From: a virus
Taxonomy: Duplodnaviria; Heunggongvirae; Uroviricota; Caudoviricetes
Virus record (IMG/VR): IMGVR_UViG_2850796239_000012
Length of the DNA stretch: 51,993 nucleotides
Strand: one strand, 5' to 3'
Shown: in pieces, positions 34,231 through 47,982 of the stretch
How the letters are laid out: each line of letters begins with the position of its first letter
How positions within the stretch are numbered: the stretch's first letter is position 1
Position numbers and translations under genes: made by a program
The notes under the pieces: generated by a model
What the model saw: the letters and a program-made list of their open reading frames with translations, nothing else
The model's database searches: none
What the model was told of the DNA's origin: nothing

Positions 34231-34667
34231 TACGGTCCTCCTCCCCGGAGGGGGCATTTCATTATTTTTCTAATCATTACTGGTGAGAAGGCGGAAGAAA
34301 AAGCCAGTTCTTCGCCCCTAAATAACAGCATGATTCCAGTCCATGCAAAATCTGATTTCCAGCTCACACATACCGAGCACTGTACAAAAAACCGCCAGCC
34401 AAGGCAGTTAAGAGTGTGTTCCCGGGGTTTGCTTAGAATATTTTGTAAGTTGTCCGAAGAGATATTTACAACACCAGAATGATGCATTATCAGTCCCCTG
34501 CCAGAGGTTCACTACGTAACCTGACCGACAATGCACCATTCTGGTGCTGAAAAAAGAGCACTGGAACTGCAACAAAACAACATCACAGAACAGGAGATGG
34601 TAAGGAGTCAGACATTCCCACACAATATTGTGTCAGTGCAAATAACAACCTTCGTCTCAAATCTCGC

Positions 34668-34742
<75 letters not shown>

Positions 34743-34745
34743 ATA

Positions 34746-34821
<76 letters not shown>

Positions 34822-34823
34822 GC

Positions 34824-34900
34824 TGGCCCACCACCGAGGACTCGAACCTCGCACCGTCAACTTAGAAGGTTGATGCTCTATCCGGATGAGCTAGTGGTGG
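34824..34900 (-). tRNA. tRNA-Arg (anticodon UCU)
   Basis: Acceptor stem CCACCAC/GTGGTGG (unusual C1-G72), anticodon stem TCAAC/GTTGA with loop CUUCUAA, T-arm CGAGGTTCGAGTCCTCG, CCA encoded. Confidence 0.7.
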
Positions 34901-34901
34901 T

Positions 34902-34978
34902 TGGTGGCCCTTGCTGGACTTGAACCAGCGACCTGGCGATTATGAGTCGCTCGCTCTGACCAACTGAGCTAAAGGGCC
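34902..34978 (-). tRNA. tRNA with CAU anticodon, body resembling minor tRNA-Ile (ileX/ileZ type)
   Basis: GGCCCTT acceptor stem, anticodon loop CUCAUAA, T-arm GCTGGTTCAAGTCCAGC, CCA encoded; Ile(LAU) versus Met cannot be settled from sequence alone. Confidence 0.7.
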
Positions 34979-38519: not shown

Positions 38520-38675
38520 TTACTTCCTGGATTCGTAGTCTACGAAGACAGCGACCTCCGTCTGGCCGGTTCGGATTCGTACCTCACAGAGGTCTTTCCT
38601 CGTTACCAGTGCCGTCACTATGACGGTTAAACAGATGACGATCAGGGCGATTAACATCGCCTTTTGCTGCTTCAT
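38520..38675 (-). CDS. hok: Hok/Gef-family type I toxin (HokD/RelF-like)
   Basis: 51 aa MKQQKAMLIALIVICLTVIVTALVTRKDLCEVRIRTGQTEVAVF…, very close to recalled HokD/Gef; an in-frame upstream extension (to 38732) is mok-like. Confidence 0.85.
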   Translation of the reverse strand: MKQQKAMLIALIVICLTVIVTALVTRKDLCEVRIRTGQTEVAVFVDYESRK

Positions 38676-38902
38676 AGCCTGCTTCTCCTTGCCTTTCGGC
38701 ATGTAAGAGGCTAACCTACATGTGCAAAGCATGAAATTGGCCTCAGATTAATGTTAAGCGTCTTGCCGGACGCGTAATGTTAACTGGGGCTTTTCTCTAT
38801 CTGCCTTTTGGTGTTCATGCCTGAAGCAGATAGCCTCAAGCACCCGCAGTCATTCTACTTACCTCGCCAATATGAAATCAATCAGAAAGGTGCCCCATAA
38901 AA

Positions 38903-42909: not shown

Positions 42910-43317
42910 ATGAAAAACGAAACCTTCGGTGCTCGCCTCTTACATAGGCGTAAAAAATTAAAACTGTCTCAGGCCGCATTAGGTAAGCTGGTCAAAGTGG
43001 CTCACGTAACAATTTCTCAATGGGAAAGAGATGAAACACAGCCGGCGGGGAAAAGATTATTCGCACTGAGCCAAGCGCTTCAGTGCTCACCGACTTGGCT
43101 TCTTTTTGGGGATGAAGATAAACAACCAGGCGAACCGATCCCGGATAATCAGCCAGCCATTCTGACAGAAGATCAAAAAGAGTTACTTCAACTGTTCGAC
43201 GCACTGCCTGAGTCAGAGCAAAAGGCCCTGTTGTCAGAGATGCGTGCTCGAGTTGAAAATTTCAACAAACTTTTTGAAGAACTACTCAAAGCTCGCAAAA
43301 GAAGCGCAAACAAATAA
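42910..43317 (+). CDS. Phage repressor (cI/RacR-like, HTH, no peptidase domain)
   Basis: 135 aa with N-terminal HTH …LKLSQAALGKLVKVAHVTISQWE…; divergent from the cro-like gene. Confidence 0.7.
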   Translation: MKNETFGARLLHRRKKLKLSQAALGKLVKVAHVTISQWERDETQPAGKRLFALSQALQCSPTWLLFGDEDKQPGEPIPDNQPAILTEDQKELLQLFDALPESEQKALLSEMRARVENFNKLFEELLKARKRSANK

Positions 43318-43384: not shown

Positions 43385-43445
43385 AAAAACTTAGGTTTTT
43401 CTACATAAAAATCTTGACCATCCACCTTAGGTTATTCTAAATTTC
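43385..43445. promoter_or_regulatory. OL-like operator region
   Basis: CTTAGGTTTTTCTAC (43390-43404) and CCTTAGGTTATTCTAA (43425-43440) repeat the CTTAGG/CCTAAG motif seen in the OR region; contains a possible TTGACC -35. Confidence 0.35.
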
Positions 43446-43676: not shown

Positions 43677-43880
43677 ATGAACGAGACAGAATTAAAACAC
43701 GTTATCGCTCTACTCCCAGAAGATGCAAAACGCCTCCAGCAACTGGAGCCAAATGCAGGCACTGGGGCACGCATCTGGCTGGCTAAAGAAGCGCTGGAAT
43801 CTGGCGATTATGATAGCGAAGAAGCCTTCTACAAAGCAGAAGGCCGTGCAGGATATTCACCGGGTCTTGGCGGGGTATAA
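43677..43880 (+). CDS. Hypothetical early-left protein
   Basis: 67 aa from ATG 43677 preceded by SD AGGTGAG; a 51-aa ORF (43520-43675) lies just upstream. Confidence 0.3.
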   Translation: MNETELKHVIALLPEDAKRLQQLEPNAGTGARIWLAKEALESGDYDSEEAFYKAEGRAGYSPGLGGV

Positions 43881-44153
43881 ATACCATGCGCATTGACTGA
43901 ATTCGCAAACAAAAACAGACGCGCGATACCCGGATAGTCGGTCTGCATAGTCAGATATCTGGCTGCGAATTTGATAAATATCACCGCCCTTTTCGGAAAC
44001 ATAAGTTCCGTCCGGGAGTTGATTATACGAACCATCTCCATGGGGGATCGTTCTCCTGAATCCTAGTGAGAGCATATATTTATGAAGCCCTTCGTAATCC
44101 TCTGGCTCAGCATTATATAGTTCTACTCTGGCGAGATACGTTGGCATATTCAT
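43857..44153 (-). CDS. Hypothetical protein, antisense to the early-left operon
   Basis: 98-aa ORF with SD AAGGAA; converges on and overlaps the 3' end of the 43677-43880 ORF. Confidence 0.35.
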   Translation of the reverse strand: MNMPTYLARVELYNAEPEDYEGLHKYMLSLGFRRTIPHGDGSYNQLPDGTYVSEKGGDIYQIRSQISDYADRLSGYRASVFVCEFSQCAWYLYPAKTR

Positions 44154-44383
44154 TTCCTTACTGGTTGTGTGAGAACTTCAGTAAAGATACCACCAAAGCC
44201 CGGAGGTGGTGAAATAAAACCGGGCACAACACGAAGGCGCATTTCCGGTATCCATAAAGAGTCGGTCTTGTCTGTGAAATTTAAATGGTGGGAGTGCGCT
44301 TCCGGTTGTAAATAACGACATTGCTGTGTGAAGTACCAGTTGGCGGCATCGGTTTAATTGCTGGCTGATGTCCGCCCTTTTTA

Positions 44384-44405
44384 AAGTGAATTTTGTGATG
44401 CGGTG
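44384..44405. repeat. 22-bp inverted repeat, left arm
   Basis: AAGTGAATTTTGTGATGCGGTG; exact reverse complement at 44517-44538. Confidence 0.8.
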
Positions 44406-44516
44406 AATGCGGCTAAGCCCACGCGGCACAGTTAAAAGTCATGTTAGTCCTTATTGGTTTGGGTGGGAAAGCCGACTGTAATTGTTAACTGGTTAACGTC
44501 ACCTGGAGGCACCAGG

Positions 44517-44538
44517 CACCGCATCACAAAATTCACTT
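44517..44538. repeat. 22-bp inverted repeat, right arm
   Basis: CACCGCATCACAAAATTCACTT; 111 bp spacer containing GTTAACTGGTTAAC. Confidence 0.8.
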
Positions 44539-44560
44539 CGGTGATGAAAGGTGAGAGAAA

Positions 44561-45409
44561 ATGTTGAATGTAGCTATTGAAAACCAGAACGGGTGGAATT
44601 ATAGTGCACCTGCACCTCATAAAACGGGTGCCGGGATTGCTACCCCGACGATGACTACTGCGCATAACCGCGCTCAGGCGGTTTTTTTATGCGTCAAGCA
44701 CAGCCACATTCAGATTATGGTGGGGCGTGCAGGGCAGCCGCAAGGCTGGCCGGTTTCGGTAGTCACCGGTTGTAGCAACCCTGTGCGTCTCACCACCCAT
44801 GAGATTGCTACCTCTGGTGGTGAGTTATTTAAACTGACTATCGAGGCTGCCATCATGGCTACTATCCTTACCCTTTCTCACCCTGACGTAACCATCGAAA
44901 ATGGTCGCGCTGTCACTACGTCTGTTGCGGTTGCGGAGTTCTTCCGGAAAATGCACAAAAACGTTATTCAGAAGATCGAAACTCTCGAATGCTCGCCGGA
45001 GTTTAACCGGCTTAATTTTAAGCCCGTCACCTATACCGACGCCAAAGGCGAAAAACGCCCAATGTACCAAATCACCAAAAACGGCTTCGTTTTCCTGGTG
45101 ATGGGCTTCACTGGCAAAAAAGCCGCCGCATTCAAGGAAGCCTACATTGCTGAGTTCGACCGCATGGAGGCCGAACTGCGCCAGAATAACACCCCACCTG
45201 CTGACAAGATGATTCCGGGTGATGGTCGCACTCTGGTTGTTCACTTCGACAAATTCGGCAATGTCGAATTCACCGAAACCGTTCCTGATGGCGCACTGGT
45301 CTGTACCCTGGAGACTTTCCGGTTTTATCTGGAAAAACAGGGATGGACTCTTGTTAACCGGGGCGCAATTAAAAATATGACTGTGGAACAATTACTTTCT
45401 TTAAAATAA
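44561..45409 (+). CDS. Rha-family phage regulatory protein (antirepressor-like)
   Basis: C-terminal 184 aa (from Met at 44855) carry the Rha-type region …TSVAVAEFFRKMHKNVIQKIE…FNRLNF…MYQITKNGFVFLVMGFTGKKAAAFKEAYIAEFD…; the upstream 98 codons are in frame with a good SD at 44561 and may be an extension or a separate small ORF. Confidence 0.6.
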   Translation: MLNVAIENQNGWNYSAPAPHKTGAGIATPTMTTAHNRAQAVFLCVKHSHIQIMVGRAGQPQGWPVSVVTGCSNPVRLTTHEIATSGGELFKLTIEAAIMATILTLSHPDVTIENGRAVTTSVAVAEFFRKMHKNVIQKIETLECSPEFNRLNFKPVTYTDAKGEKRPMYQITKNGFVFLVMGFTGKKAAAFKEAYIAEFDRMEAELRQNNTPPADKMIPGDGRTLVVHFDKFGNVEFTETVPDGALVCTLETFRFYLEKQGWTLVNRGAIKNMTVEQLLSLK

Positions 45410-46155: not shown

Positions 46156-47982
46156 ATGAGCACAAAACCACTCTTCCTGTTACGGAAAGCGAAAAAATCA
46201 TCCGGTGAACCTGACGTCGTCCTGTGGGCAAGCGACGATTTTGAATCGACCAGCACCACTCTGGACTATCTGCTCGTTAAGTCAGGTAAAAAACTGAGCA
46301 ACTATTTTAAAGCTGTTGCCACAAATTTTCCTGTCGTTAATGACCTTCCCCCTGAAGGTGAGATCGATTTTACCTGGAGTGAACGCTATCAACTCAGCAA
46401 AGACTCCATGACATGGGAACTAAAACCGGGAGCAGCGCCAGACGACGTTCACCACCAGGATAATGCTCAAGAAACCAAAGAACTGGCGGGAGGCCAGGAA
46501 GAAAACGCGCAGGCAGACGCCCACGAGGATTGCCAGGATTGCGAAGTCTCTGTAGCCACTTTGCGGTTCACACAGCGTCTTCTGCACATTTTTACGTATG
46601 CTGCCGGGGATCGGAAATACCTGCATCATGCCACCCGTGAACAACGCAAACACATTACTGCTCTTGAGATGGATCAGGAAAACAGCTATGTCCAGAATCT
46701 GCTGTTGGCCATACGCGGCATGGCAGAACCGACAACTCTGGATAATGCCGCCCTGCTCCGCCTGACTGATGCAATTAAGGCAGTTTTCTCTATCACGAAA
46801 AAACATCAGCCCTATGAATTTAAGAATTTCATTTCAGCCTGGCTGGATACCGAACACATTGATCGCGGTCTTCTGACAAAAGAATGGCGAAAAGGGAATC
46901 GTGTTTCACGCATCACTCGCACGACTTCCGGTGCTAATGCTGGCGGCGGGAACCTCACCGATCGCGGCGAAGGTTTCGTCCACGATCTGACGTCACTGAC
47001 GCGCGATGTAGCCACTGGCGGGCTGGATTATTCCCGCGCCATCGTGGTTGCGTCCGTGAAAGAAGCACCAATTGGGATCGAGGTCATCCCCGCACACGTC
47101 ACTGAATATCTGAACAAAGTACTGACTGAAACCGATCATGCCAACCCTGATCCGGAAATCGTGGATATTGCCTGCGGTCGCTCCTCTGCCCCGATGCCGC
47201 AGCGAGTAACAGAAGAAGGAAAACAGGACGATGAAGAAAAACCACAACCATCTGGCGCAATGACAGATGAACAGGCAACGGCTGAAACAGTGGAACCGAA
47301 TGCAACTGAACATCATCAGAACACGCAGCCGCTGGATGCTCAGTCACAGGTAAATTCTGTTGATGCGAAATATCAGGAACTGCGGGCAGAACTCCATGAA
47401 GCCCGGAAAAACATTCCGCCCAAAAATCCTGTCGATGCAGACAAATTACTGGCTGCCTCTCGCGGAGAATTTGTTGAAGGGATTAGCGACCCGAATGATT
47501 CGAAATGGATTCCCGGTCATCATATCTCCTCAAATGAAGTCAAAAAAACGGAAAATGAAGTGCGACAGACTGAAGATAAACAGCACCAGAACAGCGAACC
47601 GGAGGAGGGAACACCCTGCAATCAGACTGGCGAGGATAACTGCCCTGACTGTGGCGCGGTGATGGGAGACGCAACTTATCAGGAAACTTTTGACGAAAAA
47701 AAACCAGATGAAGCACAGGAAGAAGAGCCGAAGAAAACGGAAAAAGCTGATGATTTGTTACCGGAGAACGCTGGCAGCGATCAGCATAATGATAGCAATA
47801 ATGAAACTGGCGAAGATGAACTCAACTGGAAAAAACAGGTGTTGATTGCGGCGGTTTACGGTTTATGTGCGAATCCTGCGTGCATAGCCTATGCGCCTGC
47901 AATCCCTGACATCGCAATGATGATTGCCAACAAGCTTGAAAATTTTGGAGTGACCAGTGATGAGCGCTTACCCGATTTTTGA
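46156..47982 (+). CDS. Large acidic protein of unknown function with Cys pairs and a hydrophobic C-terminal tail
   Basis: 608 aa; CQDCE and [13 protein letters not shown] motifs, Glu/Asp/Gln-rich low-complexity centre, C-terminal …[33 protein letters not shown]…; SD GAGG. Confidence 0.45.

Follow-up and report, generated by a model that had tools for sequence, protein, structure and literature searches.

The dicBF region of the Qin prophage and the kil region of the Rac prophage are classic systems of Escherichia coli K-12, whose products DicF, DicB and KilR inhibit cell division and are kept silent by repressors, Rho and NusG. RNase III, for which a 22-base-pair (bp) RNA helix is a canonical substrate, acts at processing stalks such as the helices flanking 16S and 23S ribosomal RNA (rRNA), the early sites of phage T7, the lambda N-leader site and the adhE leader. 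Here we examine an element bounded by a perfect inverted repeat at positions 44384-44538 of a 51,993-nucleotide (nt) stretch of Caudoviricetes DNA (IMG/VR record IMGVR_UViG_2850796239_000012; the whole stretch is called the window below). An initial annotation, made from the sequence alone, had drawn attention to this repeat. In our judgement the element is a folded RNA related to the small RNAs (sRNAs) STnc100 and PasD, and we lean towards reading its long closing helix as an RNase III processing stalk that lies between an upstream sRNA and a downstream messenger RNA (mRNA).

The STnc100/PasD literature describes the behaviour of Hfq-dependent sRNAs without giving a mechanism (PMC8550237; bioRxiv 10.64898/2026.05.13.724894), and PasD1 and PasD2 have been verified as such by Northern blotting (PMC8550237). 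For K-12 Qin, a 72-nt DicF has been reported as a product of RNase III, as against a 53-nt terminated form (Faubladier et al. 1990, via PMC9438474 and PMC5069750); as far as the passages in the citing papers go, this site is presented as a processing event that gives an alternative DicF 3' end, and not as the stalk of a folded RNA. In open-access text we found no description of the dicF-dicB and kilS-kilR spacers as STnc100-type folded RNAs.

The repeat-closed element and the STnc100/PasD family

A repeat search of the window returned the left arm, AAGTGAATTTTGTGATGCGGTG (44384-44405), and the right arm, CACCGCATCACAAAATTCACTT (44517-44538), as 22 nt each, 100% complementary and 111 nt apart, exactly as the initial annotation had it, and GTTAACTGGTTAAC, which it had placed within the enclosed segment, lies at 44484-44497. 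Two checks that it had proposed were run. The arms are the sole matches to the 22-mer in the 52-kb window at up to three mismatches, with no match in 100 shuffles, and structure prediction for the + strand RNA gave a fold of -65.2 kcal/mol (z = -5.3) in which the arms close a multi-branched interior.

The 155-nt domain is ordered as follows. The arms form helix P1, and its 5' strand is followed by the linker AAU (J1/2, 44406-44408) and by the hairpin P2 (44408-44425), with a stem of 44408-44411 with 44422-44425 and the loop GCUAAGCCCA. Next come strand X (CAGUUAA, 44429-44435), which is the 5' half of a pseudoknot, and a P3 region (44436-44473) that varies in length and sequence among relatives and holds the type-B motif GGGUGG. 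Hairpin P4 (44474-44500; 5' strand 44474-44481, 3' strand 44493-44500) carries in its loop (UUGUUAACUGG, 44482-44492) the pseudoknot partner of X, X' (44485-44491), so that GTTAACTGGTTAAC proves to be the P4 loop from its third base together with the first five bases of the 3' strand. Hairpin P5 (CCUGG-AGGCA-CCAGG, 44502-44516) directly abuts the 3' strand of P1.

The Rfam model STnc100 (RF02076) matches the element at 30.3 bits (E = 1.8e-4 in a 1.2-kb search) over model positions 21-154, covering the whole interior and the inner part of the arms; the gathering score of 47 bits is not reached, and the window copy is absent from a gathering-threshold scan. The family plan comprises P1 (..GGUG/CACC..), AAU, P2 (4-5 bp, loop CUNNGCG), X, P3, GCGR, P4, UCA and P5 (CCNGG-AGGCA-CCNGG, abutting the 3' strand of P1), and the window copy has both the STnc100 architecture, with P1 around P2, P4 and P5, and the junction and loop motifs. 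Two types are distinguished by P2: STnc100 proper has the type-A stem (CCCCC...GGGG), and the window copy, those of K-12 and that of phage P7 are among type B (GCG...CGC). With the STnc100 model a type-A copy scores 131 bits, as compared with 43 for P7, 35.2 for locus L041, 34.4 for Qin and 30.3 for the window; type-B copies are missed by Rfam-based annotation because they score 30-43 bits against the threshold of 47. The family model R1 gives the window copy 70.7 bits, the window sequence being itself part of the R1 seed.

The window element thus belongs, as its long-stalk type-B variant, with STnc100, PasD1 and PasD2, with which it has in common the helix order, GGUGAAU, the P2 loop CUNNGCG, CACCNGGAGGCACCNGGCACC, a P1 closing the whole, a P4 loop that pairs with the strand after P2, and a prophage-borne occurrence in Enterobacterales. 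It differs from STnc100 in P2 (GCG/CGC, not CCCC/GGGG), in the length of P1 (22 bp, not 5-12), in having neither a 5' leader nor a 3' tail with an intrinsic terminator, and in its setting, which is early-left and before a ribosome-binding site, whereas STnc100 is free-standing in the late or transfer RNA (tRNA) region.

Comparative support was drawn from family sequences gathered with the 3' motif CACCNGGAGGCACCNGGCAC in public viral and genome collections, arranged as 21 type-B sequences on a hand-drawn structure (alignment A2) and a family-wide set of 104 sequences of less than 85% identity (A1). In A2 the fold is paired in 96.4% of cells, as against 33-42% when the partners are slid, and 19 pairs have changes on both sides (13 of the 22 pairs of P1, five of the eight of P4 and one in P5), values reached by none of 500 shuffles. 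RNAalifold on A1 likewise gave many double-sided changes in P1, P2 and P5. P2 is paired in 100% of cells in A2 and covaries family-wide among CG, GC, UA and AU; the middle pair of P5 is U-A in 13 and G-C in eight of the A2 sequences; and 103 of the 104 family members have the P4 hairpin, built from 84 distinct 5' strands. The linker AAU is invariant in both alignments, and GGUGAAU as a whole is invariant or nearly so across the family. Strand X, 99.3% paired in A2, matches its own P4 loop over a mean of 5.80 nt and the loops of other members over 4.34 nt, and the observed value was reached in 0 of 2000 permutations.

The pairing also reveals which strand is selected. The window copy is alone in having 22 pure Watson-Crick pairs, the other 18 long-stem variants using G-U pairs or a one-base bulge. 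The non-Watson-Crick positions among all 19 distinct variants are 29 G-U, three A-C and one other. A + strand G-U pair corresponds to an A-C mismatch when the opposite strand, or the DNA, is considered, and it is therefore the + strand RNA on which selection has acted. Accordingly, the suggestion of the initial annotation that the repeat could be a long RNA hairpin attenuating rha was right in kind, in that pairing of the + strand RNA has been kept, with double-sided changes at 13 of the 22 P1 pairs; the structure is not a plain hairpin, and nothing shows attenuation of rha. We conclude with high confidence that the element is a folded + strand RNA homologous to STnc100-type RNAs.

The perfection of the window repeat appears to have a particular origin. 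In A2 the window copy is Rac-type up to the conserved P4 loop and Qin-type after it, and it therefore looks like a recombinant of the two types; the combination of a perfect P1 with two internal mismatches in P4 follows from this Rac-type 5' half and Qin-type 3' half. The base at 44419, in the P2 loop, is C in the window and G in 20 of the 21 type-B relatives.

The closing helix as a proposed processing stalk

Across the family the length of P1 is bimodal: it is either 5-12 bp or 18-30 bp (a bulge being allowed), with nothing between. The 39 distinct long-stalk copies are all type B, and in none of them does a terminator lie within 100 nt, that is, the 3' Rho-independent terminator of STnc100 (model positions ~155-206) is absent from this interval in 39 of 39. 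They are followed instead by a ribosome-binding site and a start codon, with median distances of 15 nt (DicB) and 31 nt (KilR); the other genes found after them are ash-rha, ydaE-like genes and genes for unrelated proteins of 64-96 amino acids. Type-A copies are followed by a terminator-like hairpin in 65 of 131 cases and, in a separate count of instances, have no open reading frame (ORF) within 400 nt in 98 of 162, the rest having diverse and distant ORFs. At least three sequences that are unrelated to one another, AAGTGAATTTTGTGATGCGGTG, CAACAGACCTTGCAATGCAGTG and AAGCAGGTTTTAAGGTGTGGTG, form long stalks of one length, which indicates that a helix of about two turns is conserved and its sequence is not. 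In the window the 22 Watson-Crick pairs make up a continuous double-stranded RNA of more than 20 bp and about two turns, as expected of a helix cut by RNase III.

The sRNA and the mRNA that the window stalk would separate lie close on either side. The left arm begins 2 nt after the end of a KilS/DicF-like sRNA (~44287-44382, +; sub-threshold Rfam DicF match of 28.6 bits), whose intrinsic terminator was located by a terminator scan (stem 44345-44372, U-run to 44381). On the other side the start codon of the annotated ash-rha ORF (ATG 44561, +; from the ORF list, a RefSeq coding sequence (CDS) and the Pfam matches Phage_ASH and Phage_pRha) stands 22 nt from the 3' arm, within a purine-rich ribosome-binding region (44546-44563, +) that contains GAAAGG (44546-44551) and AAGGUGAG. 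In a fold of 44286-44585, P1 is extended by pairing of CCUUUU (44376-44381), from the terminator, with this GAAAGG, so that cleavage could free the ribosome-binding site; comparable extensions of P1 to 28-30 pairs are predicted for the Qin and Rac types.

The nearest characterised counterpart is the dicF-[element]-dicB arrangement of Qin, which is homologous to the window locus, with a full-length alignment at ~82% identity, one base different in the 5' arm and two in the 3' arm. Both copies follow a DicF-type terminator; in the window a KilS-like sRNA stands upstream, and ash-rha, preceded by isrK and C4, takes the downstream place that dicB has in Qin. On the positions given in the citing papers, the 3' end of the 72-nt DicF falls 19 nt past the end of dicF, at position 2054 of the Qin locus (L006), which is inside the 5' arm of P1 (2042-2063), and the cut remains in this arm even if the 53-nt DicF includes the U-run. 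It is this placement that makes an RNase III processing stalk the best reading of the long P1. By homology, RNase III would be expected to cleave the 5' arm of the window P1 near 44396-44401 and the 3' arm at a staggered position. Weak additional evidence is an rnc-dependent peak of RNA-seq reads listed at NC_000913.3:1649470 (26 reads versus 0; PMC5371410 Table S1, a noisy list); this position (2071 of the Qin locus) belongs to the Qin element and is 7 nt past the arm. It should be noted that the classical RNase III site that gives the 190-nt DicF was considered and set aside as an explanation: that site belongs to another long hairpin, on the upstream side of dicF (bioRxiv 10.1101/2023.04.14.536235), and the cut there is therefore a separate event.

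A model for the window locus can be framed on this basis. The RNA would be made when transcription from the early-left promoter, or from a KilS-type promoter, reads through the terminator at 44345-44381. In copies embedded before a ribosome-binding site P1 would have been lengthened to about two turns, 22 bp here, and so have become a substrate for RNase III, whose double-strand cut would part the folded core from the KilS/DicF-like sRNA before it and from the ash-rha mRNA after it. The upstream sRNA would thereby gain an alternative 3' end, as is reported in the papers citing the work on DicF of K-12 Qin; a core of ~110-130 nt would be released; and the ash-rha mRNA, or that of dicB or kilR elsewhere, would be left with a short 5' leader. 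The cut might also free the ribosome-binding region from the pyrimidine run of the terminator, and might alter translation or stability in either direction. Taken as a whole, we regard this model as somewhat better than an even prospect for the window locus.

Compared with the stalks of rRNA, T7, lambda and adhE, the window P1 has in common a helix of about two turns formed by sequences that flank a folded RNA, a position within a phage early operon with an RNA element on its upstream side and the ribosome-binding site of the next gene on the other, and the potential for cleavage to unmask that site. Its sequence is unrelated to theirs, and whereas the sites of T7 and lambda consist of plain hairpins that contain internal loops, this stalk closes a pseudoknotted domain. 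C4 RNA (RF01695; phages P1 and P7) and isrK are likewise phage regulatory RNAs ahead of an antirepressor-type gene, and in C4, too, internal hairpins are enclosed by a long stem (17 bp); there is no similarity in sequence or motif, and most relatives of the element occur without C4 or isrK. Maturation of C4 depends on RNase P, and the RNA regulates its own operon through base pairing.

Several points weigh against the processing model and the comparative case beneath it, and they are of different kinds. The shuffle and permutation controls ignore relatedness among the sequences, and the invariance of P5 is not evidence, since the P5 motif was the search key. The evidence on RNase III concerns the Qin homologue and reaches us through secondary citations with its nucleotide precision unchecked, and the authors of PMC5371410 equate the 1649470 peak with the classical DicF site ('known, dicF-dicB'), from which, by our mapping, it lies ~225 nt downstream. 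The predicted extension over the ribosome-binding site is absent from the long-stalk relatives L041, L129, L142 and L149. In the window itself the core may be impaired, because a nearly invariant base of the P2 loop is changed and P4 has two mismatches, and isrK and the downstream genes may be transcribed without read-through across the element, given the promoter-like site ahead of isrK at 44577-44605.

The ~150-nt unannotated spacer between sRNA and toxin genes in K-12 proves to be a conserved pseudoknotted relative of STnc100 and PasD, and the RNase III cut reported behind DicF falls, on the positions quoted for it, in the closing helix of that RNA. If the model holds, it would suggest how an sRNA, a folded RNA and a toxin or antirepressor mRNA are separated from one transcript, and would tie the poorly understood STnc100/PasD family to a defined processing pathway. 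A bolder extension, which we offer tentatively and think unlikely to hold in full, is that the STnc100-type core is a functional RNA of an unrecognised class, binding a protein or ligand or even processing itself, and that its long-stalk form is an RNase III-gated device coupling read-through of the DicF/KilS terminator to expression of DicB, KilR or Ash-Rha in most E. coli, including K-12.

Other explanations of the element

The alternative that survives best is a stable RNA that acts in trans or binds a protein, in which the function resides entirely in the core, the long P1 is a clamp or a barrier to nucleases, and the neighbouring genes are incidental. The free-standing type-A relatives with their terminators, 98 of 162 of which have no ORF within 400 nt, speak for such an RNA, as do the frequent position of type-A copies beside phage tRNA clusters and in tandem arrays, the Northern-verified, Hfq-dependent PasD1 and PasD2 (PMC8550237), and the conservation of junctions and loops across genera. 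What it leaves unexplained is that P1 jumps to ~22 bp only before ribosome-binding sites and that the long-stalk copies lack the 3' terminator and U-tail of STnc100/PasD. This explanation is compatible with release by RNase III, and hence only partly a rival; on its own account we think it rather unlikely.

It could also be proposed that the element acts in cis as a leader independent of RNase III, its fold and extended P1 directly controlling how well the next gene is translated or how stable its mRNA is, through masking of the ribosome-binding site or a block to decay from the 5' end, possibly in response to a ligand, a protein or temperature. In its favour, a start codon follows the long-stalk copies at 13-31 nt; pairing of the ribosome-binding region with the U-run upstream of the element is predicted in the window and in the Qin and Rac types; and a pseudoknotted core with invariant junctions resembles an aptamer. 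However, 22 Watson-Crick pairs make a helix whose stability would preclude switching and which RNase III ought to cleave in vivo, the pairing of the ribosome-binding site is not universal, the downstream genes are unrelated to each other (dicB, kilR, ash-rha, ydaE-like and others), and type-A copies, unlike a riboswitch, have no gene nearby. We therefore consider such a leader improbable. Its narrower form, a riboswitch or gene-specific leader, was rejected because the downstream genes are unrelated or absent; Rfam gave no riboswitch match.

A transcriptional attenuator or terminator of rha, with the hairpin stopping or pausing RNA polymerase, would make sense of a very stable structure between the upstream promoter and rha. 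Yet no U-run follows the 3' arm (CACUUCGGUGAUG), which rules out an intrinsic terminator ending at 44538; the 111-nt multi-branched interior is unlike that of an intrinsic terminator; and the terminator scan found terminators at 44345-44381, upstream, and at 44666-44690, and none at the element. Nor is the element specific to rha, since it also precedes dicB, kilR, ydaE-like genes and the terB gene of P7, or stands alone, and we regard attenuation as very improbable.

Least credible of all is a feature at the level of DNA, whether a miniature inverted-repeat element, as the initial annotation had also entertained, a cruciform or a protein-binding site. The perfect 22-bp repeat, the palindromic GTTAAC pair inside it and the occurrence of the element at several sites in an E. 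coli genome (median 2, maximum 9) might suggest one, but the two GTTAAC sequences are a conserved RNA loop and a covarying stem, no target-site duplication is found in the flanks (TTTTA/CGGTG; ...CCCTTTTTA, CGGTGATG...) or at the K-12 copies, the arms covary and tolerate G-U and not A-C, which is the signature of RNA from one strand, and the interior is a conserved folded RNA present once in the window. The same annotation took multiple dispersed copies as the mark of a repeat element rather than of regulation. Copies are dispersed, at up to nine places per E. coli genome, but this does not discriminate, because they are divergent homologous RNA modules in equivalent slots of different prophages and not transposed repeats; the mobile-element reading is rejected.

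Three further candidates were considered. A retron msr-msd RNA was rejected, as there is no reverse transcriptase and the neighbours are DUF1391, ash-rha, ydaE-like and exonuclease VIII genes (dicB or kilR in K-12). For a tRNA-like RNA, ARAGORN and the Rfam tRNA models gave no call at the element; the 4-bp P2 and the stacking of P1 on P5 recall a tRNA, and tRNA genes are found next to some copies, which amounts to resemblance only. The third is a put-like antiterminator as in HK022; against it, type-A copies have terminators of their own, and the element stands after the DicF/KilS terminator and not before it.

Distribution and the surrounding region

Relatives were found by BLAST in 4642 of 5426 complete E. 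coli genomes (~86%), almost none of them annotated, and in 39 phage records. Among the matches listed in the scan with CACCNGGAGGCACCNGGCAC the hosts are overwhelmingly Enterobacterales, with Escherichia, Salmonella, Citrobacter, Enterobacter, Klebsiella, Kosakonia, Pantoea, Erwinia, Rahnella and others represented. Where relatives are annotated, the gene that follows at once, within the early-left operon, is kilR (Rac-type phages), dicB (Qin-type) or another small gene. In K-12 MG1655 the element is present twice, as dicF-[element]-dicB at NC_000913.3:1649442-1649593 (Qin) and as kilS-[element]-kilR at 1418236-1418391 on the - strand (Rac), and the P7 copy is in the ban operon, between tRNA genes and terB. 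A search of the window, the K-12 loci and P7 with R1 gave the expected single copies only.

Two further structures were seen in P7. At 2804-2888 of the P7 locus (L001) there is an unannotated tRNA-like sequence ending in CCA, which scores 46.6 bits with the tRNA-Sec model against a gathering score of 47. Just upstream of it, at ~2652-2800, lies a look-alike of the element, to which R1 gives no match: 10 bp form its closing helix (GTTGTGGTGG/CCACCACAAC), one hairpin comes after AUU, and another adjoins the 3' strand. At L223 (3738-4824), and also at L018, L201, L034, L052, L009, L019 and L032, type-A STnc100 copies occur as tandem arrays of two or three divergent units, often on the same strand as phage tRNA clusters and within 100-700 nt of them. 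In L223 only 4 nt lie between the end of one copy and a tRNA-Met gene, an arrangement suggestive of joint transcription and processing. At loci of the L008 type (e.g. L008 3500-3650, -) a short-stalk type-B element lies upstream of a DicF/KilS-like sRNA; this reversed order indicates that sRNA and element have been shuffled relative to each other.

The placement of the repeat in an early-left operon, after an antisense ORF of 98 amino acids and ahead of the Rha gene, was correctly called in the initial annotation. The cI-like gene (42910-43317, +) faces a cro-like gene which, together with a cII/YdaT-like gene, is on the - strand, and the + strand is therefore the early-left direction; a promoter-like site (43414-43443) lies upstream of a DUF1391 (ydfA/ydaF-type) gene. 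The 98-amino-acid ORF (43857-44153, -), antisense to this operon, has no Pfam match and is unannotated in a RefSeq genome of 99.9% identity; it occupies the slot that sieB fills in K-12 Rac. The KilS/DicF-like sRNA is also unannotated in that genome and is homologous to K-12 KilS (b4833), with a different presumptive seed.

Between the element and the Rha domain fall two Rfam matches, both above threshold and on the + strand, to isrK (44612-44688, 61.5 bits) and to C4 RNA (44713-44800, 75.7 bits). The promoter-like site TTGAAA-17-TATAGT (44577-44605, +; 10 of 12 matches) is directly upstream of the isrK match. Within 44561-44885 (+) isrK, C4, Phage_ASH and the RefSeq 'Rha' CDS are all assigned to the same bases. 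The Phage_ASH match covers amino acids 14-108 (E = 4e-21) of the 282-amino-acid CDS, the Rha domain begins at amino acid 119, and initiation at ATG 44856 would give a typical Rha N-terminus; either the RNA genes overlap a real ORF, or one of the annotations is spurious.

Two other inverted repeats were noted in the window. One, with arms of 22 nt that are 95% complementary and 169 nt apart (41944-41965/42135-42156), is made of palindromic TGTAACGC..GCGTTACA and spans the end of a 260-amino-acid ORF of the replication region and the start of the YdaT-like gene; it could represent operator- or origin-type sites. The other is an imperfect 31-nt repeat (34465-34553; 84% complementary, 27-nt loop) ~120 nt from a cluster of four tRNA genes (34671-34978, -). 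Finally, matches to the antitoxin RNAs sok (38670-38845, -; 117 bits) and RalA (49416-49594, -; 213.6 bits), together with an exonuclease VIII gene (46156-47982), identify the window as a Rac-like prophage.

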